Assembly: GCA_963575745.1 (NCBI GenBank)
Contig: CAUYUJ010000078.1
Location: 62,001-118,649 of the forward strand
Length of the DNA: 56,649 nucleotides
Direction of reading: 5' to 3'
Source: Prorocentrum cordatum
Lineage: Eukaryota
Notes under the pieces: model-generated
Seen by the model: only the letters and a program-made list of their open reading frames with translations
The model's database searches: none
What the model was told of the DNA's origin: nothing
Program-made: the position numbers and the translations under genes
In this document: positions 1 through 19,495 of the stretch, piece by piece
How the letters are laid out: each line of letters begins with the position of its first letter
Position numbering within the stretch: the first letter of the stretch is position 1

Positions 1-852
1 TAGACAGGACTCACATGATTTCGGCTCGTCTCCGAGCATATCTGATGATATAATATCATCTTCGTCCACAAATGCTGAAACCAAAACACACTGGTCGGGC
101 AGCATAGTTGTTGGGACGCAATAAAGATAATCATCGGTAATCGTCGTAGGATGAAGGTCCATACGTAGCTCGTCGTACCACTCTTCCAGCATCATAGCTT
201 CAATATTGTGTTCCTCATTTTCCTCATAGATTGTCGACAGACGGCCTTCGCTCGGCGATGAAGCGTCTGGTGTGTCTGGAGAAGGCCTGTTTCCAGGCGA
301 CTCGTGTTCTCCAGACGTGTTGCTTGGATGCTGATATTTAGCCAAATCGTCGTGAAATCCTAAGGAAGGGACACGTGAAGTCAAGCATTGAATAAGTCTG
401 GAGTGAGTGCTACCAGTGATCTGAGAAATGTTTAAGCCAGTGCCCACGCATTCGTAATAGTGGAACGCCGGGCTGATGTCGTTGTCATAGTGGATCAGCG
501 TAGACCCGGTGGCGTACTTTACTGCAGGTAGGCTTGGCACACTCTTAGCCAATCGAACTGCTACTACATGTTCTACTCGGAAGTAATTCCGTACGAGATA
601 CTGTAGTGCTAAGTGTACGCGCGGGTGAAACTTGCTGTCGTCTGACAGATTAAGGTTTCCCTTGTAGTCGGGGATATACCCGAAAACTTTGGCAGGTTTC
701 CCTGCGCTGAGGTGTGCCACATAAGCAAGGACGGTTTGCATGGCCATGTTATCCATGCCAAGTTCCCGTGTGAGGAGACATTCGATGTATAGTGTGTGAC
801 GAGCATCAGGATACATCACAATTACCCCACGAGATCCTGCCTTGACAACAAT
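1..852 (-). CDS. Pol continuation after integrase (open to window edge)
   Basis: Manual translation shows a stop-free frame from ~852 (IVVKAGSRGVIVMYPDARHTLYIE...) to base 1. It is missing from the ORF track, probably because it has no stop in the window. Confidence 0.75.
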   Translation of the reverse strand, partial: MVVKAGSRGVIVMYPDARHTLYIECLLTRELGMDNMAMQTVLAYVAHLSAGKPAKVFGYIPDYKGNLNLSDDSKFHPRVHLALQYLVRNYFRVEHVVAVRLAKSVPSLPAVKYATGSTLIHYDNDISPAFHYYECVGTGLNISQITGSTHSRLIQCLTSRVPSLGFHDDLAKYQHPSNTSGEHESPGNRPSPDTPDASSPSEGRLSTIYEENEEHNIEAMMLEEWYDELRMDLHPTTITDDYLYCVPTTMLPDQCVLVSAFVDEDDIISSDMLGDEPKSCESCL

Positions 853-1534
853 GTCCTCTTTCAGGCACGTTTCGGATCACCGGGAATGGGCCGTTCCAGC
901 CTCCATGGTCGTCCTTGGTGGCAGTAGGTCGGTGGTAGTCGACCAAATCCCCTGATGAGTAGAGGCGAGCACCATCAGGAGTCGTCTTAGCCCTAAGAGC
1001 CCGATTTGTCTTGGCTACAGCAGTAGCCTGAGTTATGGCTTCGAGGCTGACTTCCCTTACACGACGTTCTCGTTCGTGTCCTGAAGTCTCGGGTCCCTTG
1101 GGAAAGTCAAGGGTATCGAGATCAGGAAGGAAGGAGGGCTGACGTCCTGTGTGTGCCTGATATGGCGATACTCCGTTATAAAACGTAAACGCATTAGTAA
1201 CGAAGATGCCTTCCGCCAATACTCTAGTGAATACAACAGGGATGTTGTGTCTATTCAATTCTTCCTCAATCATGTGGAGGACGCCTCTGAGAATGCCGTT
1301 TCGTGACTCAATTGAAGTCGCGTGTTGGCCAGGTGCACGGATACGAAGTTCCGTGCCCTTATTGGCCATCATGGTTTTAGCGGCATCGTTATTCAGGGCG
1401 CCTTCTCCGTCTGAGTATAAAACTTTGAAGGGTCCGTGATAGGCAATCCAGCAATAGTGGTAGGCGTCGATGATAGTGTCGCGTTCTCTGTCGGAAATCT
1501 CTAGGCCTGCTGCCAGGCGAATACAACGGTCCAT
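806..1534 (-). CDS. Integrase catalytic core (rve-like), separated from the upstream ORF by a 1-nt frameshift
   Basis: LYSDGEGAL (second D) to HATSIESRN (E), with 33 residues between them; N....GVSPYQ..TGR; GDLVDY.R...GWNGP C-terminal motif. Adding one T in a T-run at ~1541 restores IFHIMD. Confidence 0.88.
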   Translation of the reverse strand: MDRCIRLAAGLEISDRERDTIIDAYHYCWIAYHGPFKVLYSDGEGALNNDAAKTMMANKGTELRIRAPGQHATSIESRNGILRGVLHMIEEELNRHNIPVVFTRVLAEGIFVTNAFTFYNGVSPYQAHTGRQPSFLPDLDTLDFPKGPETSGHERERRVREVSLEAITQATAVAKTNRALRAKTTPDGARLYSSGDLVDYHRPTATKDDHGGWNGPFPVIRNVPERGHCCQGRISWGNCDVS

Positions 1535-4149
1535 AATATGAAAATGGTCCGTTTCTTGTAAAACATGAGGTCCATTTCCCCTTCATCGAGCCAGTTACCA
1601 GGGAGGCTTACCGATGGTAATGTCGAGTTTCCTGGACGTTCCCATGCTCTACATTCCCGACAGGTATCGCAGATTTCCTTGATCATGTTCAGTCGAACGT
1701 TATCAAGCCCCACCTTTTCGAGGATTCGCCTCATCTTTGGCTCCTTCGCATGACACCATCGCAGATGCAGTTTTCGGAGTTCCTTTGTCACAACATGGGG
1801 TTCGTGACTACGGAGACCCTGTAGACTGTGTTGGATGTCAAATCTCGCCCAGTCGGGTAGTCGTGGAGCCCCAGAGCCGGTGGAGGCAAGAGGGTTCCTT
1901 GTAGCTCTACGTAGTTGATCCCCTGTGTTGACTGCGTCTGGAGGTGGTGGTACGCCTTGTAGACGTCCGCGGCGGGCCGCTACCTGTGGCGCATCGCTAG
2001 AAGACGCAGAAGGCGTGTTTCCACGCTCGGGGGCGTCTCGTAGCAGGTCGTAGCTGCTGGTACCAGATGTCGGATCGACGTTACCGAAGGAACGTGGTCG
2101 TGGTGGCCTGGCGTGTGCGCCTTGGCGGCCACCTGAAGCTGAAGCTTGGCCCTCACCAGGTTTAGGTAGGGGTTTCCACCAAGCTGGCACGGTTTTGCCT
2201 TCGGGGTCGTGGTCGTCTGGTAGTTTAAATGGTTCAGCAAAACGACATTTACCAGGTTCGGTATCAAGGTGATTCTTAACACCCTTGCTTCTCGTAAGAT
2301 CCCTCTGACATGCTGGACATGGCCAGTATACAGAGATAGAGTCATGATATTTGCACTGCGTAGGGTCTCTGTTATGGCTAGGACTGTCCTTTCGGACGTT
2401 GTCGATGCATGCCGGGCACGTAGCCACCTTTGGGATGATACGATCACCGATGCGTCTCATACCTTCACCTGGTTCAGCTTGCTCAGGAAGGTCGGCAGGA
2501 TAAGCATGTGCAGTATTTATAGGCGCGTTTCCGCGCGTGGTGTCAATGGCTTTCGCCAAGTAGACGGCTTCCACGAAGGCAGACTGCAGTCGTCGAGTGT
2601 ATTTTTGTGCCAGTGAAAGCTCGGTGTTGCACGGTTGTGCGTGCACATGCTGACCGTTGCACTTGAGTCGCTCAAAGGGTTTAAGAATTGTCTTGTCGTT
2701 GCTGGTGATATTTGTCGGCTTCTTAATATAGTCACCAGTCGTATCTTTAAGTCCAGTAGCGCATTGATCAATGCGCACGGTCGCGATGTGTGGTCGGTTG
2801 GCAAGCTTCGTCCATGGAGAGATATCGCCCACCCATGTTCCTGTCGGTTGTTCGCGTATAAACAACCTCTGAGCGTCATCTTGGGCAACAGCAATTTTAC
2901 CACAATAGATTATGTGTGGTAAGTCTTCTCTGTGGTGCTGTTCCCAAGTGTTATAGTTGACTTTGTAGTTATAGTAAGATGGTGGTCCTGTGGTGCGGCA
3001 GCTGGGTTGCAGTATGGCAACTCGTACGTAGCATATCTTAAAGTAATGATCTATAACCTGCTGCACCGAGGGGTCTCCCAGGTCGACATATGTAGTCTTG
3101 TCCAAGTTGCCGCCTGAGGAAAGTCCCCTTGAGAAGGCAAGTTCTGAGATGCCACCCTCACCACCACAAAGCTCCAACATATCCACGCAATTGTTATGGC
3201 CGTAGCATAGCGTAGCAACTATGCTGTATATGTTAGCGTGTGTGTCGGGCATAGATGTGGGAAGGGTAAGGAACAGGTCATCGTCCTCGTCGGAGCTTAT
3301 CAGCTCAACAGGGGCGCCAGTACTCCAGGTTGCCATAAGATCCTGTCCGAGTCCTGACAAGTCATCGCCGCAATCGTCATTTCCGTCTTCGACGTGCTTT
3401 TTAATGCGGCGAGGCTTGATGCCTGCTTCCTTTTCGGCTTTGAGCCTTTCCTTCTGCTTTATACGCGATTCAGTGGGTAAAGCTTGCTCGTTTTGTTCGT
3501 CGGTCTGTGTACTCATTGTCGTGGTGGAATGGGTACATGCGTCAATCGCCAGAGTCGGGAGGGGGAGAGAACAGTCATCTATGATGACGCGTCTATGTTT
3601 CTGTGGTGATTGAGTAGGCTCGTTTCCGAGCAAGACCGGTTCCTCGGGTTGCCAATACAACCGAGTACTGATGTTGGCAACCCCTGCAGGTAATGGTGCA
3701 TGCCAATCATACCCTGTTGGTTGATCGGTAACTGAGATATCTTGAATAACCGCGTTGGTATCCAGGTTGATTGTTACACGTCGGATGACTTCAGACCATT
3801 TTGGTCCTCCCTTATGAGTCGTCACGTAGTGACGGGTATTATGGTCTGTACGTGTATACGTATTTAAGTATACGGGCACGTTTCCGTGCGTGGTGGTACT
3901 CCCCAGGATTTTGTCGTTTAAGTAACGGATGAGTGTAGTGCGTGTCTGAGCCCGCCATTCAGCATGTCGTACCGTATGGCCGTACCAGTCCAACACATGT
4001 TGTGGTATGGCCTGCTTACAGGTACATGTCCACAGCTTCGAGCTAATCGGTATCGATGATGCTACCTGCATATATGTACCACTTGGTGTACTGTCTTGCA
4101 TATTGAACCGAATACCGAAATGACACAAACGCATCCGTATTACTGACAA
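1501..4149 (-). CDS. pol: Pol part: C5-methyltransferase-like domain, two CxxC-H-C zinc motifs, integrase HHCC domain and first catalytic Asp
   Basis: HLRWCH...CDTCREC (HHCC, ~1650-1770); EMDLMF (first D); CPAC...H...C twice (~2185-2420); methyltransferase-like motifs (see separate feature). Confidence 0.85.
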   Translation of the reverse strand: MSVIRMRLCHFGIRFNMQDSTPSGTYMQVASSIPISSKLWTCTCKQAIPQHVLDWYGHTVRHAEWRAQTRTTLIRYLNDKILGSTTTHGNVPVYLNTYTRTDHNTRHYVTTHKGGPKWSEVIRRVTINLDTNAVIQDISVTDQPTGYDWHAPLPAGVANISTRLYWQPEEPVLLGNEPTQSPQKHRRVIIDDCSLPLPTLAIDACTHSTTTMSTQTDEQNEQALPTESRIKQKERLKAEKEAGIKPRRIKKHVEDGNDDCGDDLSGLGQDLMATWSTGAPVELISSDEDDDLFLTLPTSMPDTHANIYSIVATLCYGHNNCVDMLELCGGEGGISELAFSRGLSSGGNLDKTTYVDLGDPSVQQVIDHYFKICYVRVAILQPSCRTTGPPSYYNYKVNYNTWEQHHREDLPHIIYCGKIAVAQDDAQRLFIREQPTGTWVGDISPWTKLANRPHIATVRIDQCATGLKDTTGDYIKKPTNITSNDKTILKPFERLKCNGQHVHAQPCNTELSLAQKYTRRLQSAFVEAVYLAKAIDTTRGNAPINTAHAYPADLPEQAEPGEGMRRIGDRIIPKVATCPACIDNVRKDSPSHNRDPTQCKYHDSISVYWPCPACQRDLTRSKGVKNHLDTEPGKCRFAEPFKLPDDHDPEGKTVPAWWKPLPKPGEGQASASGGRQGAHARPPRPRSFGNVDPTSGTSSYDLLRDAPERGNTPSASSSDAPQVAARRGRLQGVPPPPDAVNTGDQLRRATRNPLASTGSGAPRLPDWARFDIQHSLQGLRSHEPHVVTKELRKLHLRWCHAKEPKMRRILEKVGLDNVRLNMIKEICDTCRECRAWERPGNSTLPSVSLPGNWLDEGEMDLMFYKKRTIFILWTVVFAWQQA
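2563..3183 (-). other. C5 cytosine methyltransferase-like domain
   Basis: Motif I-like MLELCGGEGG, motif IV-like LQPSC (Cys retained), motif VI-like IREQP, then DQC..G...KKPT, C..H.H and AQKY, in C5-MTase order. Confidence 0.65.
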
Positions 4150-4151
4150 CT

Positions 4152-4573
4152 TTAGATCTTCCAGAGTATCACGTACTGGAGATAACTTCCAAACATATCC
4201 TGGGGGACCGAATATGATGATTTCATGCGGAGTTTCTTGGCTTTTATCAACAGGTTCTGGATACGTGACCAGTGTGGGGCCACTCTCTTTCCTGGAGTTC
4301 GTATATACCAGTCACCCGGAGTACTGATCCATATGAGAGTGTAATCTCCACTGATCACCGCACCTAGATAGTTTGTGCCCACGCTTGTCATAAGTTCGTG
4401 TGGGAAATACGGTCACAAATATAACCTCGTGTGCGGAGGTCGGCGCATGCCTCCCTCGTATCTTCAATGACAAAAGCCCTCTTACTAAGGCAGGTTGCCC
4501 CGCTGTCCTTGTTACCCCCCGGCTTTTCAGCCATCAGGCAAGACGACGAGGGGGCGACGTCGCCCTGCCATCT
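4152..4573 (-). pseudogene. Interrupted polyprotein linker
   Basis: After the TGA at 4574-4576 the same frame continues (RWQGDV...AFVIEDTREACADLRTRGYICDRISH), then shifts frame near 4395 and 4220 to join the 1501-4149 ORF. Confidence 0.6.
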
Positions 4574-7500
4574 TCAAGATGAAGAAGATGTGCCTACAAT
4601 ATCTGCCAGCATCTGGGCTTCCCTCAGATGCTGGAGCTCAGCACTGCAGCGCGCCGTGGCCTCAGAGGCGGATTGCTCCGCAAATGCTGTCAGCATCGAT
4701 GGATTATCCATCAGCTGTTTCAGCACGCCTTTGGACCTAGCGTCGCTGACCGTATGCAATTCACGATTAGTGTATCCCATCACTATTTTACGGCGGGACT
4801 GCACAGCGTCCATGGGTACACTACCACCATGCAGGGCCAGTGTCCTGGCAACAAAACAATCGAACGTCTCGAGATCGTCGATGTTGTCGCCTCGCATGGT
4901 GGCCTTGGCGAGCGTCTCCATCAACCCCTGGGGCAGGTTTCCCTGCAATTGATTGCGCTCCTGCGCTGGGGTCGGCTCGCCTGTCAGCACTGTCTGGAAG
5001 GACGTGCTGCTTGAGCTCGAGGCGGGTTGCCCCGCAGCTCCAAAACAATCACACCTGATCGACAGATGCCCTGACGGCAACTTTGTCGTCGGCATGATTT
5101 TGGAGCCTTCTGGGAGCTCCATTTTGACCTGCCCCTTACCAGGGAATATCAGCTTTTCCTGGCCTCGTTCAAGCACGATGATCGTGCGTTTGTCCTGCAT
5201 ACTGTCGAGACCTAGGATGGCTGGCAGGTCCTTTCCACAGCCTGACACAATGTTCGTCTTGTATGAATCGTGTTGGGCTGACCCCTGGTACTCGCAGGCA
5301 ATGCTAAATGTGCCTACGGTATCCGCTGGGGCCGAACCCTCTCCCACTCCGTTGATATGCAAACGAGAGCGGGGCTCGAACGTACAAGCACGACCATGTG
5401 ACTCAGCAGCCTGGACGAACTTACGGCTCGTGTTCTCGCCCATGATGTTGATCTTCGAACCGACGTCGATGAGTATGGAATTTCCACCGTCATCCAAGAA
5501 CGTCTTACTCGGCTGCTTGATGTGCACAGTTTCTGAAGTGTCGGCTGTGTCGGTAGGCGGGTTTCCCCGCGGCACATTCGTACTCCCTGGCGGGTTACCC
5601 CGCACGACACTGGCATGCGACTCGCTCTCGGCCATGCGTGCCAGGTCAATGTACTGGAAGTACGACACGTGCTGGGCGTGATCACCACGCTCCTCCCGCC
5701 AGTTGGCATACTCATCACGTATGCTCATATACTGCTCGCGGGTAGTGCGCCTTATCAGCGTTAGGTACGAGTGAAGGGCGATGTCTTGCAGCCCCTCGTT
5801 CGTGACGTGATCCCGGTACCGCAACCACTCCTCGAACTCCTCATTCGTCGCTGGGATGTTGACGGCCCTGGCTGCTGTTGCTGCTGACGCCGCTGAGGAT
5901 TCTGATAGGTCTAACGACGGACTATCAGTTTCAGGATTATTGGCATCTAGCATAAGCGTTGTGTGTGTATTACCCATCTGATTCTGGAAATGTCGTACAC
6001 GCAACTCGCGCAGCTGATCAGGGCCCAGTGACATCTCAGCCTCGCCTCCACTCTGGGGAGACATCTGAGGAGTATCATGCAGGTTTCCCTGCTGAGGCGC
6101 CGTCATCGGGATAAGCTGATCGAAATATCCCGTTGCCAAAGGCGGCCTTACCTCTTCAGGCAGGTGTCCCTGCTGGTGTGACGAAACTGTCTGCAAAGCT
6201 AGCATCCTGGTCGTCATCTCCTCCACCATACTCCTCAGCTCCCGCAGCTCCCTCGCTGACTGCTCGGGAGTCTGACTAAGGGAGCCAGTCCATGGGAAGG
6301 ACGATGTTATAATGCCAGGTGCACGACAGATCGCGCATGGTGGCTGCTGGGGATCTCCCCCACGCTGGTTTGTCACGTGGCCCACCACGTTAGAATTCCA
6401 GCATCCCTCGTGGAATAGGTGATTGCACCTCAGGCGGTACACACTATCCCTGGGCTGAAATTCTTCGAGGCATACAGCACAGGTGTCCTCCATCCCAGTA
6501 AAGACTTCTACGTCTGCTACCCTGGGATATACCCGCCGCTGCCTCTCCAATACCGTCTCGGAGGGCATGAAGGCTGATGGGGGTGTCCCCGCTGGATTCA
6601 GCACTTCCTGCACTTCGACATTTGGCATGGAAGTGGTAGGAGTCACGGCAGGCGAGTTTCCTCGCAAAGGTGAGCCCCTATTCCGCACCACGTCGAGTGC
6701 AGCTGCACGTGACTGGTCCCGTACACTTTGCACCGCCTGCCTCCTCCTGAAACATGCCTGCTGAGTGTGGTGCGTCTGCCTGATGTAGTCAGGCACGCCC
6801 CTACTGCCAGACGATATTGAATGGGCAGTGGGTTGCACAACCACCTCTGGTGATGTTGGAGAAGGCATGAAGGCCATGTGCGGGTACATGGAGTGGTCAC
6901 TGCAGCGCACATTGGTGAGGTTATGCATCTGATCCGCCAATTCCCGAACAAATTTGTTCGGGACCCTTGTACCGTCAGGGTATAATGGCGGATTCATCTG
7001 CGTGGGTGGTGGCCTCTGGCCCTGAGACATGCTCGGATGGGCGTTGAACGCCGGGATAAAGGCTCGTTGCCGAGCGGGGTCCCGTGGGTTGGGACCCTCC
7101 GGTTCCCAGGACCAGGCTGGCCTCCACCTCTGTCCACTTGGGTGAGGCAGATTATGGTTCTGCACCTGCTGTACCGCGGCCGCCACTCTTGAGCGATAGT
7201 CGTCGGGTATACCCGCCCTGTGGTGGCTTGGTGTACCAGGCAGGTTTCCCTGCTGACTCGTTGGCGTGCCGGGCGGCATCATGTTGAGGAGGGCTGTGCT
7301 GTGATCAGCCCTAGCCGCAGCTAACCTCTCCATGAGTGTGCCGTTTACGGCAGGGCGGACAGGTGTCCCAAATGGGGATTGTGCTGGCGGAGTGCCCGAT
7401 GGAGTCATGCCCCTTGGAGTGTGCATGCTCTGTGTGGGGCTTGCGTGCATTGGCTCGAACCGAGCAGGTCCGCTTGTAGGCAGGTTTCCCTGCATGGCTT

Positions 7501-10500
7501 GACGATTTCTCGTGGCCATAGCGGACATTGCTCCCTGGCCTGCGGCCCAGGGATCCTGCTGGTACAGCCTGTCCGCCAGCTGTTCTACCTGGTCAGGGTT
7601 CAGCGAAGCTGCAATCTGATGCAGGTCTGAAGTACTTATGGCCTGCCAAGACACGGCGCTCGGCCCTTGGCTTGGGGCACGGCTTGGAGCCGCGCTCCCG
7701 GCCTCACTCTCGGTGATCATAAAGATCCGAAAGATCTCAGGCTGGTTTCCCAGCTGGGTGGGGCTGTAGTGGTCCCCAACGTCCCTGTGGAGGTAGATCA
7801 TGGCTGGATCAGCGCCCTCTTGGTCTCGGGACCACTGGTACTTAATGCTGGAATTACCAACATCAGCCCACCTATCTGAGGCAGTCATCGTACTGACAGA
7901 GACTCGCACACGGCGGCTCCCCAAATATTCTGGGTTGCGCCATTGCCTTCCAGTGGTCAGGTCCTCTACATGGGAAATGTAATACGGTTCAATGATACCG
8001 TTATCTCCCTCGGACAAGAGGACTCCGTTATCGGACCAACAGAACTTCATACCATCTTGTATGGCCTTGCGCCAATCTACAAAGATGACGAGGTCTGAAT
8101 CTGGGTCCCACCCACTGTTCACGGCACGGCGGCGCACTGTCGGCACGAAATGGATGTGTGAACGGCCTGTCCCCCTTTCCTTCGTGTTGTGCTCAGGTCT
8201 ACAGGACAGGCCGTACCACATGATACCTTCGAAAGCGTGCCATCGAGTGCCATGCATGGCGACTTCAGGGTATGGGGCCGGTCTCCCGGCGGGTTCGTCG
8301 CACAGTACAATGTAACTGTACAGCGACCATGGAGCTTTCAATGTCCATGAATGCCCCTGAGAGGCGCGGACGAAGATAGCGGGCTCGCCGGAGTCCCGCA
8401 TTAGCACCTTGAATTGAAGGCGCTGTTTTTCTTCTCCGTCTGGTTCACGAACATGAACAACTTCCATCATGATGGCTGCGAGTTGGTCAACCGAGCGACC
8501 ATACAACTGCTCGCTAATGACTTTGGCCTCGTCATATTTTGGGTTATGTCCAGCGTGCCTCGAGTGACCTGTGTTCCACGGAAAGTCAGCCACGAGTTCC
8601 ACGAGGTTAATCCAACCATCATGATCATCACAGGATCTCAGGCGCCACACAGGATTATGTGACTTATCTGGCGCATGTCTACATATCCTGCTGAGAGCTT
8701 TGCTTAACTTTTTAAGAGCATCATTGGATGTGGGAAGAATTCCGGCCTTCCTGCATTCCTTCATGAATGACTCATCCACCGAACGTATCGGTGGGAGCTT
8801 CCGAAGTGCCAGTCTACCCCTAATCAGATCTGGAGTCCCACTAGTAAAGGATGTGTCTGATGGGTGGTGCAGCTGAACTACTGGCGGGTTTCCCCGCATC
8901 GGAGCCTCTGTTGCCGAAGAGGCTGCGGCCCCAGAAGAGGAGGAAGCTGCGGCAGCAGCGCCTGGCGGGTTTCCCCGCGGAGATGCGCGACTGGCGCTGC
9001 CCCTGATCTTCGGCACCCAGTTACCCCTCGACATAGCACCTTCATCGGACCTCCTGGAACGAGCCGCCACAGGCGAAGCTGGCGCGGGTGCATACCCACT
9101 GCGCTCGAAAGCTGCCGCCCTTTTCGCAATGGACTTGCTGCGACTAAGCGGGCGTCTTCGTTCCTCCATAGGGTCCTGAGGTTGCTGCTTGGGCACAAAC
9201 GCTTGTGGAGGAGTTGCGCCAATTGGCGGCCTCGGCGTCGCAGATCGAGGCACCTCCATATGCACGTCTGGCCCAAGGCTCTGAGAGCTCGCCTTCGGTT
9301 TCGGCTCCGGAGACGGCTTAGGTGTCGGGGGTTCACTCTTAGCCTTCGAAGTTAGTGGGAGTGGGGGCTTCCTAGCCCCCTTCATGTAGATCGTGCTGGA
9401 ATCCTCCAACATCTTGCGAGTTGCCTCGCGCGTGCGTTCTTCTACTGTCCGAATACGCTCCTCATCCTCCGCCACACGTTGAGCCTTTGTCTCGTCCTTG
9501 ATGATCGGCTCTGGTTGTTGGGACTGGCTAGAGACGCCAGGCGAGTTTCCTCGCATACCAGGAAGACTAAAGAGCGCGTCTTTCTCTTCCTGGGTCATGG
9601 CTACCATTCCCCTTGGAGCCGGAGTAGGTTTCTCTTCTTCTTTCGGATCCAAGTGGCCCGAGATCCCGAGACGACTATTCACTACTGCGATCTCTTCCGG
9701 TGTCATCGGGTCAAGTGGCGGATGGCCCTCTTTAGGAGGGGTTTTGCCCCTGTTAGGGCTCAGGCCTTCGTTGTTTCCAACGGGGCATCCTGGCCTGTGA
9801 TTCTGGAACGGCTGGGAACAAGGACCGCATGCAGCGTGAGGCCTATACTGCTTGCGAGCCGCGATAATATCTCGCAACTGGGTCCGCGCTTCTTGAATTT
9901 CAGGGCGGCGGATGTTTGTTGCAAGCTGATAGCCTCCACGGATGGGCCTGCCATCGCCGTCCCTATAGGCAGGATTGCCCTGGCCGAAGGCCGAGTGTTC
10001 CCCTTTTCGGCGTCGTGGGTCGTTGTGCGGAAGTAGCTGGCCACCTCTTCTGAGAGCGTGTTCCTTTGGGCCAGCCTGTCTCCACTCACGAGGAAGTCGA
10101 GCCTGGGGATGTGGCTCTTCTCTGACGCGCGTATGGGAACGAGATCTTCTGGTGTTCTCATCAGAAGAAGCTGCCGATGCAGCAGGAGCGGCACCCGTTG
10201 GAGGTGCTTGAGGAGGCTCCTCTGCGATCCCAGATGGATCGCTCGATGGAGGCAGGTCTCCCTGCTGGGTGGAGCTCGGCGCAAGTGGCTCTTGTGCCGA
10301 TGGTGATGATGATTCAGACTCATCAGGGTCGAAATCGACCTCTTCCTCACCAGTCACGTCCATCATGAGGATGGTGACGTCATCCTCATCTAACCCACAA
10401 CCATCGCCTTCTACTTCTTCTGATGTCGAACTACCAATTATGATGGCCATTGGCGCATCTGGTAAAAGCAGGTTTCCCTGCATGGCCGGCGTCTGGGCGT

Positions 10501-10738
10501 CGCTCGGCTGTCCTGGAGTAGGAGGCGCAGTCGTCGGCTCAGGGTCATCGACGAGCATAGGCTGCCTAGCAATGTTACGCATGGCCGTATGGTTTGGCCT
10601 CATCCCCAGCTCCTGGAGATTCCATCCTGGCGGGGGAAAATCATGACCACGCATAGCCATGGCCATTTCCAGGGCACGACGCCATCTACCATGGGAGTAT
10701 ATCAAGTGTCTCTGCACTTCCTGAGGATTTACTGTCAA
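4574..10738 (-). CDS. Polyprotein middle part (2054 aa): low-complexity linkers, Tpt1/KptA domain, RING-H2 finger, retropepsin-like protease
   Basis: Long ORF overlapping the gag ORF end with a +1 frame offset (~10686-10745); the domain motifs are listed as separate features. Confidence 0.85.
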   Translation of the reverse strand: MTVNPQEVQRHLIYSHGRWRRALEMAMAMRGHDFPPPGWNLQELGMRPNHTAMRNIARQPMLVDDPEPTTAPPTPGQPSDAQTPAMQGNLLLPDAPMAIIIGSSTSEEVEGDGCGLDEDDVTILMMDVTGEEEVDFDPDESESSSPSAQEPLAPSSTQQGDLPPSSDPSGIAEEPPQAPPTGAAPAASAASSDENTRRSRSHTRVREEPHPQARLPREWRQAGPKEHALRRGGQLLPHNDPRRRKGEHSAFGQGNPAYRDGDGRPIRGGYQLATNIRRPEIQEARTQLRDIIAARKQYRPHAACGPCSQPFQNHRPGCPVGNNEGLSPNRGKTPPKEGHPPLDPMTPEEIAVVNSRLGISGHLDPKEEEKPTPAPRGMVAMTQEEKDALFSLPGMRGNSPGVSSQSQQPEPIIKDETKAQRVAEDEERIRTVEERTREATRKMLEDSSTIYMKGARKPPLPLTSKAKSEPPTPKPSPEPKPKASSQSLGPDVHMEVPRSATPRPPIGATPPQAFVPKQQPQDPMEERRRPLSRSKSIAKRAAAFERSGYAPAPASPVAARSRRSDEGAMSRGNWVPKIRGSASRASPRGNPPGAAAAASSSSGAAASSATEAPMRGNPPVVQLHHPSDTSFTSGTPDLIRGRLALRKLPPIRSVDESFMKECRKAGILPTSNDALKKLSKALSRICRHAPDKSHNPVWRLRSCDDHDGWINLVELVADFPWNTGHSRHAGHNPKYDEAKVISEQLYGRSVDQLAAIMMEVVHVREPDGEEKQRLQFKVLMRDSGEPAIFVRASQGHSWTLKAPWSLYSYIVLCDEPAGRPAPYPEVAMHGTRWHAFEGIMWYGLSCRPEHNTKERGTGRSHIHFVPTVRRRAVNSGWDPDSDLVIFVDWRKAIQDGMKFCWSDNGVLLSEGDNGIIEPYYISHVEDLTTGRQWRNPEYLGSRRVRVSVSTMTASDRWADVGNSSIKYQWSRDQEGADPAMIYLHRDVGDHYSPTQLGNQPEIFRIFMITESEAGSAAPSRAPSQGPSAVSWQAISTSDLHQIAASLNPDQVEQLADRLYQQDPWAAGQGAMSAMATRNRQAMQGNLPTSGPARFEPMHASPTQSMHTPRGMTPSGTPPAQSPFGTPVRPAVNGTLMERLAAARADHSTALLNMMPPGTPTSQQGNLPGTPSHHRAGIPDDYRSRVAAAVQQVQNHNLPHPSGQRWRPAWSWEPEGPNPRDPARQRAFIPAFNAHPSMSQGQRPPPTQMNPPLYPDGTRVPNKFVRELADQMHNLTNVRCSDHSMYPHMAFMPSPTSPEVVVQPTAHSISSGSRGVPDYIRQTHHTQQACFRRRQAVQSVRDQSRAAALDVVRNRGSPLRGNSPAVTPTTSMPNVEVQEVLNPAGTPPSAFMPSETVLERQRRVYPRVADVEVFTGMEDTCAVCLEEFQPRDSVYRLRCNHLFHEGCWNSNVVGHVTNQRGGDPQQPPCAICRAPGIITSSFPWTGSLSQTPEQSARELRELRSMVEEMTTRMLALQTVSSHQQGHLPEEVRPPLATGYFDQLIPMTAPQQGNLHDTPQMSPQSGGEAEMSLGPDQLRELRVRHFQNQMGNTHTTLMLDANNPETDSPSLDLSESSAASAATAARAVNIPATNEEFEEWLRYRDHVTNEGLQDIALHSYLTLIRRTTREQYMSIRDEYANWREERGDHAQHVSYFQYIDLARMAESESHASVVRGNPPGSTNVPRGNPPTDTADTSETVHIKQPSKTFLDDGGNSILIDVGSKINIMGENTSRKFVQAAESHGRACTFEPRSRLHINGVGEGSAPADTVGTFSIACEYQGSAQHDSYKTNIVSGCGKDLPAILGLDSMQDKRTIIVLERGQEKLIFPGKGQVKMELPEGSKIMPTTKLPSGHLSIRCDCFGAAGQPASSSSSTSFQTVLTGEPTPAQERNQLQGNLPQGLMETLAKATMRGDNIDDLETFDCFVARTLALHGGSVPMDAVQSRRKIVMGYTNRELHTVSDARSKGVLKQLMDNPSMLTAFAEQSASEATARCSAELQHLREAQMLADIVGTSSSS
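5180..5480 (-). other. Retropepsin-like aspartic protease domain
   Basis: ILIDVGSKINIMG active-site-like motif (DVG instead of D[ST]G), flap-like INGVGEG, C-terminal LPAILGLD. Confidence 0.75.
6321..6483 (-). other. RING-H2 (C3H2C3) zinc finger
   Basis: CAVCLEEF...LRCNHLFHEGCW...CAICR, i.e. C-x2-C...C-x-H-x2-H-x2-C...C-x2-C. Confidence 0.88.
7960..8715 (-). other. TPT1: Tpt1/KptA (PTS_2-RNA) NAD+-dependent RNA 2'-phosphotransferase domain inside the polyprotein
   Basis: Family motifs in the correct order: LSKALSRICRH, DGWINL, KQRLQF, RASQGHS, HGT, GL, RSHIHF, SG, VIFVD, GMKF, SDNGVLL, GII. Confidence 0.9.
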
Positions 10739-13304
10739 TGAGAGTCAAAGCTGCCAAGAGTAGCTCTGAGCTACCGCAAGCATCATTATCTTGTTCTGTC
10801 ATAATACCAGCTTCAAATTGTTCTTGACTCTCAGGATATGCAATTGCAAGTATCTCATGCATCCACATGAGGGTCTGCAAAAGTGCACGCGGTCCATATT
10901 CGCCTGGAGCAAGCGAACCAGGAGGTATGAACGGAGAACCTGGTTCGCCTGCAATGAAGGCCTGAACAAATGCTTGAGACTCCATTTCAATGAAGTCTTC
11001 AGTGGTCTGGGGATATTCCCCCATCAAAGAAGGCCTGTTTCCAGGCGGGATTTCGGGCGGATGTTCGAGGTTCCGTTGAACCTCGGAAGGCGAAGCCTCT
11101 ATAATGGTGTCCTCGTCGTCGCTCTCGTAGGCCATGATGTTGCCTGGGTTCCCGAACATCCAGTCGAGGAAGGAAAGAGGCTCGTTTCCGAGCGTACCGT
11201 GTTCCACGGGAGTGAGTTCATTACTGCCCGTGACGAACCGGCGGACGTACTCGAGGTAATACGCGTATAATCCATGACCATACCCCTCGAGCTCGTCAAT
11301 GTTGTCCACGCCAACGACCCATGTGAAAAATATCTGTTCCATAGCCTCAAAGTCCTGGAGGCTCAGATACTCAATGGATGGTGTGCTTGAGCCGAAATGG
11401 ACTTCGGACGACATGCCCTTTCCATTTCCCTTCGCTGGACAATCTCGCACAAGATGATCGGCACTACCACATTCATGGCATTTGAGAACCTGGCCGTCTC
11501 TAACTCGCGGGTTTCCCCGCCTACCTTTACCTTTACCTGAGGTCTCTCTACGGCCTTTACCACGGCCTTTTCCCCCAAAGAATATCTCATCATGTTGTTC
11601 ATCGGAGAGCCTCTGGAGAAATGCCGCGATACCTCGCCCGTTCAACCTCCGACGACCACGCTTGCCTTTGCCCTTTCCTTTAAAACTCCTACGTATCCTC
11701 CTTCTGACACGACGCACTGGTTTTCGTGTGAACCTCCTCCACCTTCGTTTAGCCTGTTGTAACAGCCAGAATAAATGCTCAGCACGCTGATTGTCATTAT
11801 CCAGATTCATGATATCTGACCAATCTAGAGCTTCAACACCATCTGATGATATAGTGTCTGTATCGGTGCCGGAGTCGAAATCTTCGTCTCCTAAATAGGT
11901 GGATACACCGTCGGTTAGGGGATTTGATTCCCCCCATAACGAGCGGTGTGGTTGTGGTTCTCTAGAGGGAGGGCTGGTTGCCCAGCTTGGTTGTGATCGA
12001 TCCCCTGCTAGTAAAGCAGTGGCTTCTCCTGAATCGTCGGCCCATATGTTTGAGGGCCCGTTTCCAGGCTGGGCTTCAGTGGTCAAGGTAGTGTAGAAAT
12101 TTCCACTACCAGATCCTCTTCCTCTTCCAAACACGGATCCTATGTTACCAGGAGATCGTTCGGATAGGTGGCCTACCGAACGCATTCTCTCCAGCAACTC
12201 ATCATACTGTTGTTGTGTTCGAGGCATTTGGTGATTGAGTGGCTGTAAGAGTTGCATGGCCTTCTGGTTGCCGACGCCTAGGGCGCGGAATAGGATAGTA
12301 GTTAACAGTTGGAAGTTGGGAAGGTCGAATCCCACCGACTGTGCCTCAAGTCGGGCCATTTCGAATCGGGTAAGAGTAACATCGATTCGTTCCCCGTGAG
12401 GCACATGGAAGTCAATAAGTTGTGTGCCGGAAGTGAGCTGTCGCTCATCTTCCAGGCGTTCGAATTTCATGCTGAGGAGAAACATAATATAAGTTACTGG
12501 GTCTGTGTGGACCCCGTCGATATCAGCGCCATAGTTTATGATGTCAGGCGGTACCCTCATGGCGAGTGTCCTCGCTAGGCCTCCCAGGCCGCGTTGTATT
12601 GCGGCCGCTTGGGCCTGTGGCGTCATACGTCCGCTTGTAACGTTGGGCCACGCGTTGACCTCGTAAATGTACTCACGAAAAGGTACATTACCCTGAGGGT
12701 CCCAATATGGGCCATGTGTTTGCCCATCGGTGCTGTTATCTCCCCGACGCATGCGTGCGATTGCTGCCCCCAGCGCGAACCATATGATAGCGAAAACGAT
12801 TAGCCCGAGAATGTGTAACGAAGGACGGTTATGATGAGCGGTGTCGCGCTGGGGTAGCGCCTTGTCGAGTCTTCGAGGCGCTCTGTCTGGCGGGTTTCCC
12901 CGCCCTTGCTTCAGGTATTGCGTTATTGGCTCGTTGCCGAGCGGTTGATAGTAACGCAATGATGAAGCGTATATGGTACCAATCTGGTCGTCTAGACGTC
13001 GTACCTCTCGTGTAGCTTCTTGCTCTTGAATAGATCCTCGTAAATGTACTGGGAGTGGTGGCGCAGGGTAGTAGGTGGTCACGAAGATCGTGCCGAAGAA
13101 TGTGAGGCTGAGAAGAGCAAGAGCTGACCACACGAGAGTGCGGCCAGCTCCGCTACCAAGTCGAAAGTGAGCCTGGTAACTCAAATAAGGCATATAGCCT
13201 GGCAAATAGCATCCATCGCTCTGCTGTGAGGGTACAGTATGAGGGGTGGATGGGTAAGATAGGATAAGATCGATGTAATGATCTTTCCAGCACATAGCGA
13301 ACAC
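10686..13304 (-). CDS. gag: Gag-like polyprotein N-terminal part, with CCHC zinc knuckle
   Basis: Capsid-like segment GPYWDPQGNVPFREYIYEVNAW...QAAAIQRGLGGLARTLA; basic KGKGK/RR tract; knuckle CHECGSADHLVRDC (~11439-11480). The true start may be the internal Met of MRRGD (~12753). Confidence 0.85.
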   Translation of the reverse strand: MFAMCWKDHYIDLILSYPSTPHTVPSQQSDGCYLPGYMPYLSYQAHFRLGSGAGRTLVWSALALLSLTFFGTIFVTTYYPAPPLPVHLRGSIQEQEATREVRRLDDQIGTIYASSLRYYQPLGNEPITQYLKQGRGNPPDRAPRRLDKALPQRDTAHHNRPSLHILGLIVFAIIWFALGAAIARMRRGDNSTDGQTHGPYWDPQGNVPFREYIYEVNAWPNVTSGRMTPQAQAAAIQRGLGGLARTLAMRVPPDIINYGADIDGVHTDPVTYIMFLLSMKFERLEDERQLTSGTQLIDFHVPHGERIDVTLTRFEMARLEAQSVGFDLPNFQLLTTILFRALGVGNQKAMQLLQPLNHQMPRTQQQYDELLERMRSVGHLSERSPGNIGSVFGRGRGSGSGNFYTTLTTEAQPGNGPSNIWADDSGEATALLAGDRSQPSWATSPPSREPQPHRSLWGESNPLTDGVSTYLGDEDFDSGTDTDTISSDGVEALDWSDIMNLDNDNQRAEHLFWLLQQAKRRWRRFTRKPVRRVRRRIRRSFKGKGKGKRGRRRLNGRGIAAFLQRLSDEQHDEIFFGGKGRGKGRRETSGKGKGRRGNPRVRDGQVLKCHECGSADHLVRDCPAKGNGKGMSSEVHFGSSTPSIEYLSLQDFEAMEQIFFTWVVGVDNIDELEGYGHGLYAYYLEYVRRFVTGSNELTPVEHGTLGNEPLSFLDWMFGNPGNIMAYESDDEDTIIEASPSEVQRNLEHPPEIPPGNRPSLMGEYPQTTEDFIEMESQAFVQAFIAGEPGSPFIPPGSLAPGEYGPRALLQTLMWMHEILAIAYPESQEQFEAGIMTEQDNDACGSSELLLAALTLIDSKSSGSAETLDILPW
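11386..11408 (-). other. Relic dinoflagellate spliced leader inside the gag ORF
   Basis: TCCGAAGTCCATTTCGGCTCAAG versus DinoSL TCCGTAGCCATTTTGGCTCAAG: 2 substitutions plus 1 insertion; translates as EVHFGSS. Confidence 0.65.
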
Positions 13305-13385
13305 AAGCAGTGTCCGGGCAAATAGGACGCGCGTGCCTTGAGCCCAAGGCAGCGGCGCGCGAGCTATGCTCCCGATACTGTAACA
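13274..13385 (-). repeat. Candidate short 5' LTR (~112 bp)
   Basis: On the minus strand it starts TGTTA (13385) at the element/satellite boundary and ends TTACA (13274), and contains a TGCCTTG-GGCT-CAAGGCA hairpin. The second LTR is not in the window and no canonical TGG primer-binding site follows, so the inner boundary is uncertain. Confidence 0.4.
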
Positions 13386-13399
13386 TATCCCAAAGAGCT

Positions 13400-13835
13400 A
13401 CCCTTAAAGTCCTGAGAGGCCCCCAAGATGCGTCCCAAGACGGTCCCTGGACGCAGACATGTACGTATTCCCGTCGTGAAACGTACAATGTTCACACATC
13501 CGCCTTCTGGGCTTTCCGACGCTCCTAGACGGCCCAAGAGGCCCCGAAAACCGCCCCAAGACGGCCCAAGAGGCCCCCAAGACGGCCCCGCGACGGTCCA
13601 ATATGGCCCCAAGACGGCCCAAGAGGTCCCCAAAACGGCCCAAGAAGGCTCCAAGACGGCACCAAGAGGGGCCCAAGAGGGCAACCAACAATTCAAAAAT
13701 CTAGTTTTCCGCCCCCACGAGCCCCAGGGGGCCCCAAGAGCGCCCCAACAGGCCGCCAACGGCCCTCAAGAAACCGCCAAGACGCCCCAAGGAGCCCACA
13801 AGAGGCCCCCAGGAGGCCCCCAAAAGACCCCCAGA
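13400..13835. repeat. Degenerate GGCCC(C)AAGA satellite (related tracts at ~17400-17520, 18985-19190, 26480-26690)
   Basis: Repeated ggcccaaga/gccccaaga/cccaagacgg units of about 10-21 bp. Confidence 0.8.
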
Positions 13836-14954
13836 CGCTTCCGTATTGCGAGCCGTCACGCCAACTGCAATGCACTCCGCGCATACAACCTTACTCTTCC
13901 TCGCGACGTGCTCACTATCTTGCTCGGCGCTAATGTGCTGCTGCCGCGCGAACTGTTTCGTGCGCGCTGCGAACGTCAACAGCCTCTTCACCCGTTTCGA
14001 TTCATCTGCCACATTTTTCGCTGTGATGCTTCGCTGATCACAGCTTCCACACACTACTCTTGCTCCTTTCGTCTTCCAGTGCTCCTCCACTTGGTTGCGG
14101 GTCGAAAGGCCGACCTCCCAGAAGGACACCCCGCACCCGGGTGCACAGCACGCAAAGCGCTCGCAAAACACGCCCCAGACCACCGGCATCACGCAAACAT
14201 TTGGACCCCCTACGTATCTGCCACCACCCGCGCGCGACACCGCACCCTCACACAAGACGCCGATGGCCAGAAACTCCTGGCCTCGCAACACTCACAGAAG
14301 GGGTCGGCGGATGTGGCGTAAGCCTGTAGAGTCAATCGAAGTAACCGAAGAGGACGCGACGACGCAGGGACTCCACAACAACCGAACCGACCGAACCGAT
14401 CGATTCCAACCGACACCGACGCAACCGAACCGACCGGTTCGCGGCCGTCCATGTTATCACTCCTCCTCCACCTCCTCCTCCTCCTCCTCCCCCTCCTCCT
14501 CCTCGCCCCCTGTGACGACGACGACAGCGGCGACGACGACGACGACGACGATCGAGGCGACGACGTCTACGGCGACGCCCACAGGAACGGCGGCGGCGGC
14601 GACAACGATGGTGGCGACAACGACGGGGGCCCAACCGAAGCCAAAGGCTGGCGCCTTCCGCAGCAGCTGCTCCCCAGCGGCGGTGGGGCCGGCGGCGACG
14701 GGGGCCGCCTGGGGCAACCCTCCATGACATAGGCTCAACATCCTCCTCCTCCACTCCTCCTCCTCCTCCTCCTCCTCCTCCTCCTCCTCCTCCTCCTCCT
14801 CCTCTCCTCCTCCTCCCTCCTCCTCCCTCCTCCTCCTCCTCTCTCCTCCTCCCTCCTCCTCCTCCTCCTCCTCCTCCTCCTCCTCCTCCTCCTCCTCCTC
14901 CTCCTCCTCCTCCTACTTATTCCTCCTCCACTACCAGGAAAATTGTGTTTTGAA

Positions 14955-15210
14955 AGGATTCAAGATGACGCGGGCGCAACAGTTACGTTGATTCGCAATG
15001 GTGAAATAAGTCCCAGGCATGGCGTTCTGGCACGAATCAGGATCGTCAACCCGAAACAGTCCCGAGAACAATGCTCTGGCATGCTTCAGGGTCTTCAAAC
15101 CGTTGACTTCCAACGAAGCAGTTCCCTCAATGGAAATGAACCGTTGTAGGGGCCTATGACGAGGGGACAAAGCTTGGAGGGATGGTGAATTCCAACATCG
15201 TTGATGACTC
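14955..15210. repeat. Dispersed ~250-bp repeat, second copy at ~16160-16430
   Basis: Shared blocks acgcgggcgcaacagtta, ggcgttctggcacga, tcccgagaaca, ggcatgcttcagg, atggaaatgaaccgttgt, gtgaattccaacatcgttgatgac. Confidence 0.85.
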
Positions 15211-15754
15211 TCGGGTTTCCGCTGGTCCTCCTCCTCCTCCTCCTCCTCATCTTCCTCCTCCTCCTTCTCCTCCTCCTCCTACGCCTCCGCCTCCGCCTCC
15301 TCCTCCTCCTCCTCCTCCTCCTCCTCCTCCTCCTCCTCTTCCTCCTCCACCTCCTCCTCCGCCTCCTCCTCCTCCATCTCCTCCTCCTCCACCTCCTCCT
15401 TCCTCCTCTCCTCCTCCTCCTCCATCCTCCCTCCTCCTCCTCCTCCTCATCATCCTCCCTCCTCATCATCTCCTCTCCTCCTCCTCTCCTCCTCCTCCTC
15501 CTCCTTCCCCCCCTCCTCCTCCTTCCTCCTCCCTTCCCCTCCTCCTCCTGCTCCTGCTCCTGCTCCTTCTCCTCCTCCCCCCCCTGCTCCCCTCCTCCTC
15601 CTCCTCCTCCCCCTCCTCCTTCTCCTCTCCCCTCTTCCTCCTCCTTCTCCTCCTCCTCCTCCTCCTCCTCCTGCTCCTCCTCTTCCTTCTCCTCCCCCTA
15701 CTCCTCCTCCTCCTCCTCCCACTTTTCCACCGCCTACCCCTTCTTTAAACGAAT

Positions 15755-16127
15755 GTGCGCGGCGCACATTCGTTGTAAGAATCTGCAGGAGCTTCACGGA
15801 TTGAGGGCGGGTGGTGTTCAACATGTGGCTCTCGCCTTAGCGCCGCGCACATTCGTTTTAAATAGTTGCAAGAGCTCCACGGATTGAGGGCGGGTCGTCT
15901 TCAACATGTGGCTCTCACCTTAGCGCCGCGCACTTCCGCTTAACCGTTGCAAGAGTTTCATGGGTTGAGGGCGGTTCCTTCTCAAAATGTAGCTCTCGCC
16001 TTAGCGCGGCGCACATGGTTTTCAAAATGTGCAAGAGCTTCACGGATTGAGGGCGGGTCATTTTCAAGATGTGGCTCTCGCCTTAGCGCCGCATTCGCTT
16101 TAAACATTTGCAAGAGTTTCACGGATT
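15755..16127. repeat. Tandem repeat, ~82-bp unit, ~4.5 copies
   Basis: Unit tgcaagagcttcacggattgagggcgg...atgtggctctcgccttagcgccgc recurs near 15785, 15867, 15948, 16030, 16110. Confidence 0.9.
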
Positions 16128-17967: not shown

Positions 17968-18652
17968 TTTATTTTTCGCCCAAAATCACCCTGTATAGGG
18001 GGACAGGCCCGACCCAAGCCCGTCTTACAGATAGAGATAAGCTCGAGGCCGGGTTTATTTTTCGCCCAAAATCACCCTGTATAGGGGGACAGGCCCGACC
18101 CAAGCCCGTCTTACAGATAGAGATAAGCTCGAGGCCGGTTCTGGACGCCCCCCCTCGGACGCACGACCTCCCGATCTGCTCAGCGCCGCCGCCCGCGCCC
18201 TCGTTGCGCCTGCCGCGCCCTGGTGCCGAGACGCTCGTGCAGCGCTCCCTCCCGCAGGTGCCGCCGCGCATCGCGCGGGCGGTCCTCCGCGGCCTGGAGG
18301 CGCTGCTTGTACAGTCAGTGCGCCCAGTAAGGACGCGCGCCTTCATCTGGGGCACCCTTGTGTCCTCTGCCTCTGCGGCCCGTCCTTTGCTGTTTTCGCT
18401 GGCCTCTCCCTGGGTCAAGCTTCCCTTGCGTCCCTGTTTTTTTGTTTTTTCTCAGCCGCCGCCCAGCAAATCCCCGCTTCGGCTTCGGCCTCCAGGGGCC
18501 TTGCGTCCTTCCCACCCGTCCTCAACGCACATCTGGACCGTCCGGCTCCTATCCCACGGAGGGGGGCCTGAGATCCTGGCGACTCGATTTTCTCGAGCCG
18601 GGTGTCTTCGTTAAGTAGGGCCTGTCCCCCTACAGGGGGATTTTCGACGAAA
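17968..18652. mobile_element. MITE-like element with ~45-bp imperfect inverted ends; left end tandemly duplicated (86 bp)
   Basis: tttcgcccaaaatcaccctgtatagggggacaggcccgac occurs twice (~17974, ~18060); the inverted counterpart gtagggcctgtccccctacagggggattttcgacgaaat is at ~18615-18653. Confidence 0.55.

Positions 18653-19204: not shown

Positions 19205-19495
<291 letters not shown>

Follow-up and report, generated by a model that had tools for sequence, protein, structure and literature searches.

Why would a mobile element write the same small hairpin dozens of times over its own coding sequence? The question is raised by a 56,649-nt stretch of the Prorocentrum cordatum genome (assembly GCA_963575745.1, contig CAUYUJ010000078.1, positions 62,001 to 118,649 of the forward strand; hereafter the window, in whose coordinates all positions are given), the left end of which holds, on the minus strand, what appears to be a long terminal repeat (LTR) retrotransposon of the Ty1/copia type. 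The sense (minus) strand of this element contains, between positions 24 and 12942, 37 copies of a 14-nt hairpin of the form 5' GC-NN-G / G-N-R-A / C-N'N'-GC (R being a purine and N' the complement of N). Family-type copies are absent from the antisense strand and from the other 43 kb of the window. The array is very probably a selected structural signal of the single strand, as judged from its strand specificity, the covariation of its stems, its fixed geometry, its indifference to reading frame and its recurrence in related elements.

A fourteen-nucleotide hairpin repeated along the sense strand

The 37 members of the family comprise 32 perfect hairpins with GNRA loops, two with a G.U pair (4490 and 12056) and three with a GACA loop; the last three were added, and the two G.U copies confirmed, by a search in which any G-N-N-A loop was accepted and G.U pairs were tolerated. 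Their consensus is [not G]-GC-NN-G-GAAA-C-N'N'-GC-C-[U/A]. The loop is GAAA in 23 copies, GCAA in seven, GAGA in three, GACA in three and GUAA in one (GNRA in 34 of the 37), and the closing pair is G-C in 36; the base 3' of the stem is C in 32 of the 37, and the base 5' of the stem is G in only two. In a direct scan for perfect 5-bp stems with GNRA loops, the interval 24-12942 gave 32 hits on the minus strand and the remaining 43 kb a single minus-strand hit, which falls in a (CG)n run at 38087; the plus strand gave three over the full length of the window. With a covariance model trained on all 37 copies, these copies score 17.6 to 27.8 bits, and no site on either strand of the other 43 kb exceeds 14.7 bits; an Rfam search of positions 1-14500 returned no match at E values up to 1. 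The mean gap between copies is 358 nt, and their spacing is somewhat more even than random (coefficient of variation 0.76 versus 0.96, P 0.059).

All copies are on the minus strand. The stem GCAGG/CCTGC encloses GAAA at 692-705 (in frame 0, reading AGKPA), 4933-4946, 6079-6092, 7240-7253, 7480-7493 and 10468-10481, GAGA at 10252-10265 and GACA at 6160-6173. The stem GCGGG/CCCGC encloses GAAA at 5557-5570, 8884-8897, 8965-8978, 11507-11520 (just upstream of the codons of a CCHC zinc knuckle) and 12890-12903, GCAA at 5022-5035 (frame 0) and GUAA at 5590-5603; the copies at 5557 and 5590 form a double hairpin with 33-nt spacing. GCTCG/CGAGC encloses GAAA at 3618-3631 and 11180-11193, GAGA at 24-37, and GCAA at 7062-7075 (frame 0) and 12929-12942, while GCGAG/CTCGC encloses GAAA at 6652-6665 and 9541-9554, GCAA at 9416-9429 (frame 1) and GACA at 12562-12575. 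GCCTG/CAGGC closes GAAA at 285-298 and 11033-11046, and GCTGG/CCAGC closes GAAA at 7741-7754 and GCAA at 11973-11986 (frame 1). The other copies are GCGTG.GAAA.CACGC (2013-2026), GCGCG.GAAA.CGCGC (2523-2536), GCACG.GAAA.CGTGC (3876-3889), GCCAG.GACA.CTGGC (4836-4849), GCCGG.GAGA.CCGGC (8277-8290, frame 0), GCGGA.GCAA.TCCGC with an A-U closing pair (4668-4681, frame 0), CGTTG.GAAA.CAACG, the sole copy without GC..GC ends (9769-9782), GCGGG.GCAA.CCTGC with one G.U pair (4490-4503) and GCCTG.GAAA.CGGGC with one U.G pair (12056-12069).

A first-pass annotation of the window, made from its letters alone, had reported more than 25 such hairpins, inside a cargo region as well, and had noticed none outside the element. 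All 30 coordinates that it listed carry the hairpin that it named, two of them displaced by one base (285 rather than 286, and 9769 rather than 9770); seven copies are new, four with GNRA loops (24, 4668, 8277 and 9416) and three with GACA loops (4836, 6160 and 12562). The occurrence within the cargo and the absence of family-type copies from the other 43 kb both hold, and the count per strand, inside and outside the element, which that annotation had proposed as a check, is the 32 versus one on the minus strand, with three on the plus strand, given above.

Base complementarity and the encoded protein

The alignment of 37 copies contains G-C, C-G, A-U, U-A and G.U at the two middle pairs, but its members were chosen for pairing, which makes it circular as evidence of covariation. 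The only count free of this circularity is that of sense-strand GCNNGGNNACNNGC sites, which are selected by the constant bases alone: NN and N'N' are complementary at 33 of the 36 sites (2.25 expected), with G.U pairing at two and no pairing at one, and the complementary sites use 11 different dinucleotides, so that the stems do covary, as had been claimed. The GGNRAC cores of the sense strand are bimodal, 31 of 67 having at least four further base pairs and 34 having none or one; at least four further pairs are found at 0 of 18 antisense cores and at 0 of 176 cores on both strands of the rest of the window. Only one of 32 stems (that at 12890) can be extended to 6 bp, and among 5-bp hairpins with GC ends, loop lengths of 3, 4, 5, 6, 7 and 8 nt occur 1, 39, 3, 2, 3 and 2 times, respectively.

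Could the array be a neutral by-product of coding, laid down by a mobile or duplicated 15-nt in-frame insert, or by a palindromic repeated peptide, xGNxP, such as a protease cleavage site? Counting the trailing C, the unit measures 15 nt, equal to five codons, and 25 of the 32 perfect copies are read in one frame, as x-G-N/D-x-P; copies lie in linkers, as expected of cleavage sites, and, in comparison with L001, a related metagenome contig, two hairpin sites of the window contain additional residues (nine at 2013 and four at 285). However, frame 0 holds five of the perfect copies and frame 1 two, and six of these seven keep the trailing C, which is thus a feature of the nucleic acid and not a proline codon. 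The residue pairs that flank G-N (Q/L, R/P, L/E, R/S, P/R, H/V, R/A, R/T and L/Q) track base complementarity, not protein chemistry. Synonymous-codon shuffles of the five minus-strand open reading frames (ORFs), which preserve every peptide and the codon usage, give a mean of 1.87 hairpins (standard deviation 1.23, maximum 7 in 1000 shuffles), far below the 31 observed, and codon-order shuffles give a mean of 0.15. The view of the first-pass annotation that protein sequence alone does not explain the hairpins is upheld by both the frames and the shuffles.

The other predictions of a neutral origin fare no better. Stems of 11 types carry complementary changes, and comparison of the element with itself around the copies yields only matches of 19-27 nt centred on the hairpins, which are therefore not copies of a longer repeat. 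The copy in the linker of a Tpt1-like domain (8277) aligns with solved Tpt1 structures without a five-residue gap at the motif, small gaps lying just upstream, which led to rejection of a clean 15-nt insertion there; the copy at 692 lies within a conserved AGKP motif; and orthologous sites in relatives have differing, compensated stems. The neutral explanation is already largely refuted.

Folding and the strand concerned

When each copy is folded in a context of 100 nt on either side, the median predicted pairing of the five pairs is 0.99 and exceeds 0.5 in 29 of 34 copies, compared with medians of 0.79 for other hairpins of the element with 5 bp and 4-nt loops and 0.81 for the same sites as antisense RNA. 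The arms have predicted pairing of 0.92-0.98 and the adjacent 4-5 nt on each side only 0.25-0.48 (element mean 0.60), so the units are predicted to stand alone on single-stranded flanks. Near-perfect copies contain seven G.U pairs (two in the window, three in L001 and two in L002, a second related contig) and no A.C pair, which favours the sense strand. The suggestion of the first-pass annotation that the hairpins might mark single-stranded (minus-strand) cDNA fails at this point, because the G.U pairs of the sense strand would become A.C mismatches there; a protein site in double-stranded DNA was likewise set aside, such a site having no need of complementarity between NN and N'N'. Although the G.U pairs separate the two strands and not RNA from sense-strand DNA, RNA is far more likely to be the active form, because the sense strand exists mainly as transcript. 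Compaction through canonical tetraloop-receptor contacts was rejected, the CCTAAG half of the receptor occurring once versus 3.3 times expected.

Near the start of ORF1, positions 12860-13010 of the minus strand have a predicted structure of -51.7 kcal/mol (z -4.95 for the 151-nt fold), consisting of a long interrupted stem (12908-12968) capped by the hairpin at 12929 and followed by the hairpin at 12890. This fold is a candidate for a primary packaging or dimerisation element.

Hairpins in related elements

Two metagenome contigs are closer relatives of the element: L001, with 64% amino acid identity in the integrase core and 51% downstream, and L002, with 61% and 40%. Under a relaxed definition (4 bp, a G-C closing pair, a GNRA loop and at most one G.U), the counts on the sense and antisense strands are six and one in L001, four and zero in L002, 35 and one in the element of the window and four and five in the other 43 kb. 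Synonymous shuffles average 0.97 hairpins for L001 and 0.49 for L002, and none of 1000 reaches the six and four observed. The covariance model trained on the window recovers four sense-strand sites in L001, at 17.8-20.8 bits; L002 scores low with it because its outer pair is U..A instead of the G..C that the window and L001 share in their GC..GC ends.

Orthologous hairpin sites common to the window and L001, L002 or both number three, of which two have compensatory changes, with two relatives being informative. At one column of the three-way alignment (window 24), three different stems are found: GCTCG/CGAGC in the window, read as L-G-D-E; GCGAG/CTCGC in L001, read as R-G-N-S; and TCGTG/CATGA in L002, which has one G.U and is read as R-G-N-M. 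The hairpin at 2013 aligns with TCGTG.GAGA.CACGA of L002, which has the same core and an outer pair changed from G-C to U-A, in an alignment that crosses a poorly conserved linker. The hairpin at 692, in the AGKP motif, is kept in L001 with one G.U and broken in L002.

Further hairpins were noticed in both contigs. Positions 3696-3742 of L002 hold two identical TCGTG.GAGA.CACGA hairpins 33 nt apart, the spacing found at 5557/5590 of the window and in a cargo-less variant of the element. In L001 (2493-2524), the orthologous GAAA hairpin has, 4 nt upstream of it, another 5-bp hairpin with GC ends, the loop of which is UCAC; the complement of that loop is a GUGA loop on the other strand.

No relative was found in a metagenome scan with ORF2, in viral-contig scans with ORF3 and with alignment A2, or in a scan of prokaryote genome contigs with ORF4. 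To judge from the sequences compared, a dense array seems to characterise this element family together with its near relatives.

The carrier element and its open reading frames

The minus strand has five long open frames, which overlap or abut at 10686-10744, 1501-1582 and 806-876. ORF1 (10686-13397) is Gag-like, with an Arg/Lys-rich tract of 35 residues, 63% of them R or K (11646-11750), which is the candidate hairpin-binding peptide, and a C-X2-C-X4-H-X4-C zinc knuckle (11439-11480; Pfam zf-CCHC, E 0.0014, below the cut-off); a single-sequence fold of its putative capsid part reached a predicted local distance difference test score (pLDDT) of 38 and was not used. ORF2 (4574-10744, 2056 residues) consists of linkers and cargo, the latter comprising a domain like the RNA 2'-phosphotransferase Tpt1/KptA (8006-8713; PF01885, E 6e-22) and a RING finger (6323-6487; PF17123, E 1e-8). 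A protease-like motif was recognised by eye near 5456-5473, and protein searches with ORF2 gave only one plus three short matches. The relatives P0083 and L002 have RING fingers as well.

ORF3 (1501-4311) encodes a domain resembling C5 cytosine methyltransferases (2530-3189) and a region like the N-terminal HHCC region of integrases. Modelled from 21 aligned relatives, the middle of ORF3 has a pLDDT of 73.8, and its top structural matches are all C5 cytosine methyltransferases: DNMT3, DNMT1 and Dnmt2 by Foldseek (E about 1e-3) and M.HhaI (Z 10.5, root-mean-square deviation 4.2 over 188 residues), with DNMT3 and DNMT1, by VIA. The domain has conserved ELCGG, QPxCR and REQP motifs, matches no Pfam model, and is found also in L002 and 35 database proteins; methyltransferases in dinoflagellate retrotransposons have been reported previously (de Mendoza et al. 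2018, as cited by other authors).

ORF4 (806-1582), which contains no hairpin, appears to encode a divergent integrase catalytic core, and ORF5 (1-876, open at the window edge) a C-terminal integrase or pre-reverse-transcriptase region conserved in L001 and L002. Pfam and Protein Data Bank sequence searches with ORF3, ORF4 and ORF5 recognised none of them. ORF4 has 1038 relatives in a representative library, the long ones having a copia-type RVT_2 domain 430-650 residues downstream and one a weak rve match; P0083 and P0050 share the order of integrase before RVT_2, and L001 has, in one ORF, an integrase-like region (residues 336-570) followed by RVT_2 (residues 951-1209, E 1e-11). This gene order suggests that the carrier is a Ty1/copia-like LTR retrotransposon, with the reverse transcriptase expected beyond the left window edge. 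The designation as a retrotransposon in the first-pass annotation is supported indirectly, by the RVT_2 domains of relatives; the reverse transcriptase itself would lie beyond the window.

One end of the element is inside the window, the contigs of other copies diverging near 13114-13187; blastn and tblastx found no copy or fragment of it elsewhere in the window. The only near-identical database protein is assigned to Prorocentrum cordatum. Most other copies, in four sequencing runs, have insertions of 1-2 nt at the ORF junctions (850, 1543, 4220/4398 and 10729-10731), which implies that the present copy is frameshifted; from these sequences, the element family probably encodes one continuous polyprotein. 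The element is very abundant, 21,327 contigs of one run falling on it (window 1-13500), and parts of it occur in 20 runs from 14 studies, many of these runs being labelled as marine metagenomes. The differences between copies are mostly transitions.

The sequence beside the element is repetitive. Tandem repeats of 10-11 nt (CCCCAAGAGGC-like on the plus strand) occupy 13500-13830, just upstream of the element, and similar ones recur at 19014-19180, 5.3 kb away. Between and beside them are long runs of TCC/CCT and GTC/GCC triplets (14440-15700 and 19190-19520), four tandem copies of an 83-nt unit that are 67-87% alike (15757-16085), and an 85-nt unit in two perfect tandem copies (17968-18138).

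Placement of the hairpins and rearrangement of the cargo

The copies are mostly in linkers between domains. Of the 37, just one falls inside the 2478 nt that code for recognised domains (Tpt1, RING, methyltransferase-like fold, integrase core and N-terminus, and knuckle), versus seven expected (P 0.004), and this copy (8277) occupies the linker between the lobes of the Tpt1-like domain. Copies are also found inside the captured host-like genes of the Tpt1/RING cargo; being in cargo of host origin, these hairpins must have arisen after capture, which points to selection for hairpins along the entire molecule.

Some copies of the element lack, and others have in duplicate, an in-frame segment of 3294 nt that holds the Tpt1 and RING domains, and its edges lie at direct copies of the GCGGG/CCCGC hairpin at 5590 and 8884. 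Contigs from three of four runs (X1, X2 and X5) connect what lies to the left of 5547 with what lies to the right of 8881 by way of about 39 nt, in which there is another copy of the hairpin, and one contig has the reverse join, from 8901 to 5629. These cargo-junction variants are rare (word depth 5-65 versus hundreds to thousands).

Possible functions

The first-pass annotation had proposed a distributed cis code written over coding sequence, and this proposal is supported by strand specificity, covariation, geometry, the use of three frames, the excess over shuffles and compensation in relatives. What the code does can be suggested only tentatively, by analogy with viruses: a possible function, and the one preferred here, is that the hairpins are multivalent binding sites for Gag, serving packaging or condensation. 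The transcript of the element would form at least 37 local mini-hairpins, all with the same geometry; selection would keep their shape and constant bases, so that hairpins would be written wherever the polyprotein tolerates them; and a reader would recognise the shape and a few constant bases, many times per molecule. The most likely reader would be the nucleocapsid part of Gag (the Arg-rich tract and CCHC knuckle of ORF1), which is a candidate because ORF1 has both a tract of 63% R and K and a CCHC knuckle. Many weak, identical contacts could then select a very long genomic RNA and condense it into a particle.

Several observations weigh against this reading. The identity of ORF1 as Gag depends on a knuckle that scores below threshold (E 0.0014, 19.1 bits versus a cut-off of 20.8) and on composition, and the packaging signals of retroviruses and Ty1 are concentrated in the 5' region and not spread genome-wide. 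The test of even spacing is marginal (P 0.059), and three loops are GACA, outside GNRA. The relatives are sparser in hairpins, at 0.7-1.2 per kb versus 2.6 per kb, and 150 distant integrase relatives have permitted pairs at only 2 of 162 xGNx sites (commonest frame only), from which it follows that a dense array is not needed for replication in the superfamily. Of the 1558 variable places among copies, the 40 listed include none within a hairpin, versus about 1.5 expected, a result that is uninformative.

An unlikely alternative is that the hairpins bind a cellular protein for nuclear export or shield the very long unspliced transcript from decay, from silencing, from 3' ends formed too early or from spliced-leader trans-splicing at internal sites. 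Sense-strand specificity, spread over the whole transcript including the cargo, and unpaired flanks would fit any reader equally well. Dinoflagellate messages are trans-spliced, according to a dinoflagellate genomics review, and a transcript of more than 13 kb offers many chances of being cut. No candidate host protein is known, however, and the constant bases differ between elements (GC..GC ends in the window and L001, U..A in L002), which co-evolution with a partner encoded by the element explains more easily.

It is quite improbable that the hairpins are substrates of the element's own enzyme, the C5-methyltransferase-like domain of ORF3 marking an invariant hairpin cytosine, in RNA or single-stranded DNA, as a self-label. 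Each hairpin does offer invariant cytosines, including the unpaired C 3' of the stem in 32 of the 37; the domain model matches C5 cytosine methyltransferases alone at the top of its list and has conserved motifs; and L002 has both the domain and hairpins (the L001 contig starts downstream of the position of the domain). Its activity, and its action on RNA or hairpins, are nevertheless putative, the structural match is moderate and unaccompanied by a Pfam match, and the best structural matches are enzymes of double-stranded DNA. A link with 5-hydroxymethyluracil was rejected, the published motif for it being TG-rich repeats (10.1101/2023.11.30.569493).

A role in reverse transcription, with the hairpins as pause or strand-transfer sites for recombination or as internal starts of the second strand, has only a slim chance of being correct. 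It would draw on the losses and duplication of the segment of about 3.3 kb, both edges of which are at the same hairpin, and on the purine-rich 5' arm, in which the variable dinucleotides are both purines in 20 of 34 copies. However, any direct repeat of 15-17 nt would produce deletions of this kind, and the joins, which may thus be incidental, are a lead, not functional evidence; the join variants are rare; the purine run is only about 7 nt; and the GNRA loop, the exact 5-bp stem and the tolerance of G.U are left without an account. A broader version, also doubtful, makes the hairpins the standard joints of a modular retroelement whose reverse transcriptase gains, loses or duplicates cargo modules by strand transfer: identical hairpins would bound in-frame cargo cassettes, and new modules would then receive hairpins of their own. 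In a bolder variant, the C5-methyltransferase-like enzyme of the element would write a chemical self-mark on the same hairpins. The neutral by-product is, on the shuffles, frames and compensated stems already described, very improbable, and small palindromic mobile inserts of the REP, RPE or MITE kind were rejected on the lack of a longer unit, the restriction to one strand and the absence from the other 43 kb.

Comparison with known systems

Binding by Gag invites comparison first with retroviruses and Ty1, whose packaging and dimerisation stem-loops, bound by nucleocapsid zinc knuckles, are few, distinct and clustered at the 5' end. The present system resembles these in the genomic RNA of a retroelement, a Gag (here putative) with a basic region and CCHC, and small stem-loops with purine-rich tetraloops; it differs from the retroviral psi in having about 37 near-identical units along more than 12.9 kb of coding sequence, although a larger 5'-proximal stem-loop also exists. 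The boxB of phages lambda and P22 has a 5-bp stem and a loop of the GNRA-type fold, is read by the arginine-rich N peptide, and occurs once or twice per operon, with a five-base loop, in transcription antitermination. The stem length, the GNRA-type loop and the ORF1 tract with 63% R and K are reminiscent of boxB, whereas loops of 4 nt account for 39 of the 50 GC-ended 5-bp hairpins, five-base loops occur three times with unrelated sequences, and there is no sequence relation. The packaging signal of alphaviruses consists of clustered stem-loops that bear GGG in their loops and lie within the sequence coding for nsP; there too, stem-loops with a shared loop are repeated over coding sequence, but as a local cluster of few.

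Dispersed packaging signals have been described for human parechovirus 1 (PMC5431903), enterovirus-E (PMC7793301), hepatitis B virus, with RGAG loops (PMC7612645, PMC8677749), satellite tobacco necrosis virus (PMC3593212, PMC5699041) and, in a 2026 preprint, SARS-CoV-2 (10.64898/2026.06.18.733228). According to these reports, the signals are many stem-loops spread genome-wide, coding regions included, with a shared loop motif and variable stems, as in the present element, and multivalent contact with the coat protein is proposed, the same role that is suggested here by analogy. The viral signals, as described there, are degenerate and were found by SELEX or cryo-electron microscopy, unlike the near-invariant unit of 5 bp and 4 nt found here, with three stem positions fixed, in a probable LTR retrotransposon.

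Literature searches found no such hairpin array described for retrotransposons; a recent review of dinoflagellate genomics, searched for these words, mentions no hairpins, palindromes or stem-loops, and the only two papers found to name both the GNRA tetraloop and LTR retrotransposons concern other subjects. Should the array prove to be a code for packaging or condensation, a retrotransposon would for the first time be seen to have dispersed packaging signals like those of viruses, and in unusually clean form, with one 14-nt unit repeated about 37 times in three frames. With defined oligonucleotides and synonymous mutants one could then ask by what means a capsid protein picks out and compacts a very long RNA, and in what way signals of this kind share sequence with protein coding; a gene-capturing element would be seen to retrofit host genes with its own cis signals; and the unit offers a signature by which this very abundant element family could be recognised in the genomes of dinoflagellates and in marine metagenomes. 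Among known kinds, the dispersed packaging signals of viruses come closest, and what is new here is the probable LTR retrotransposon as carrier, the regular form of the unit and the presence of copies in captured genes.

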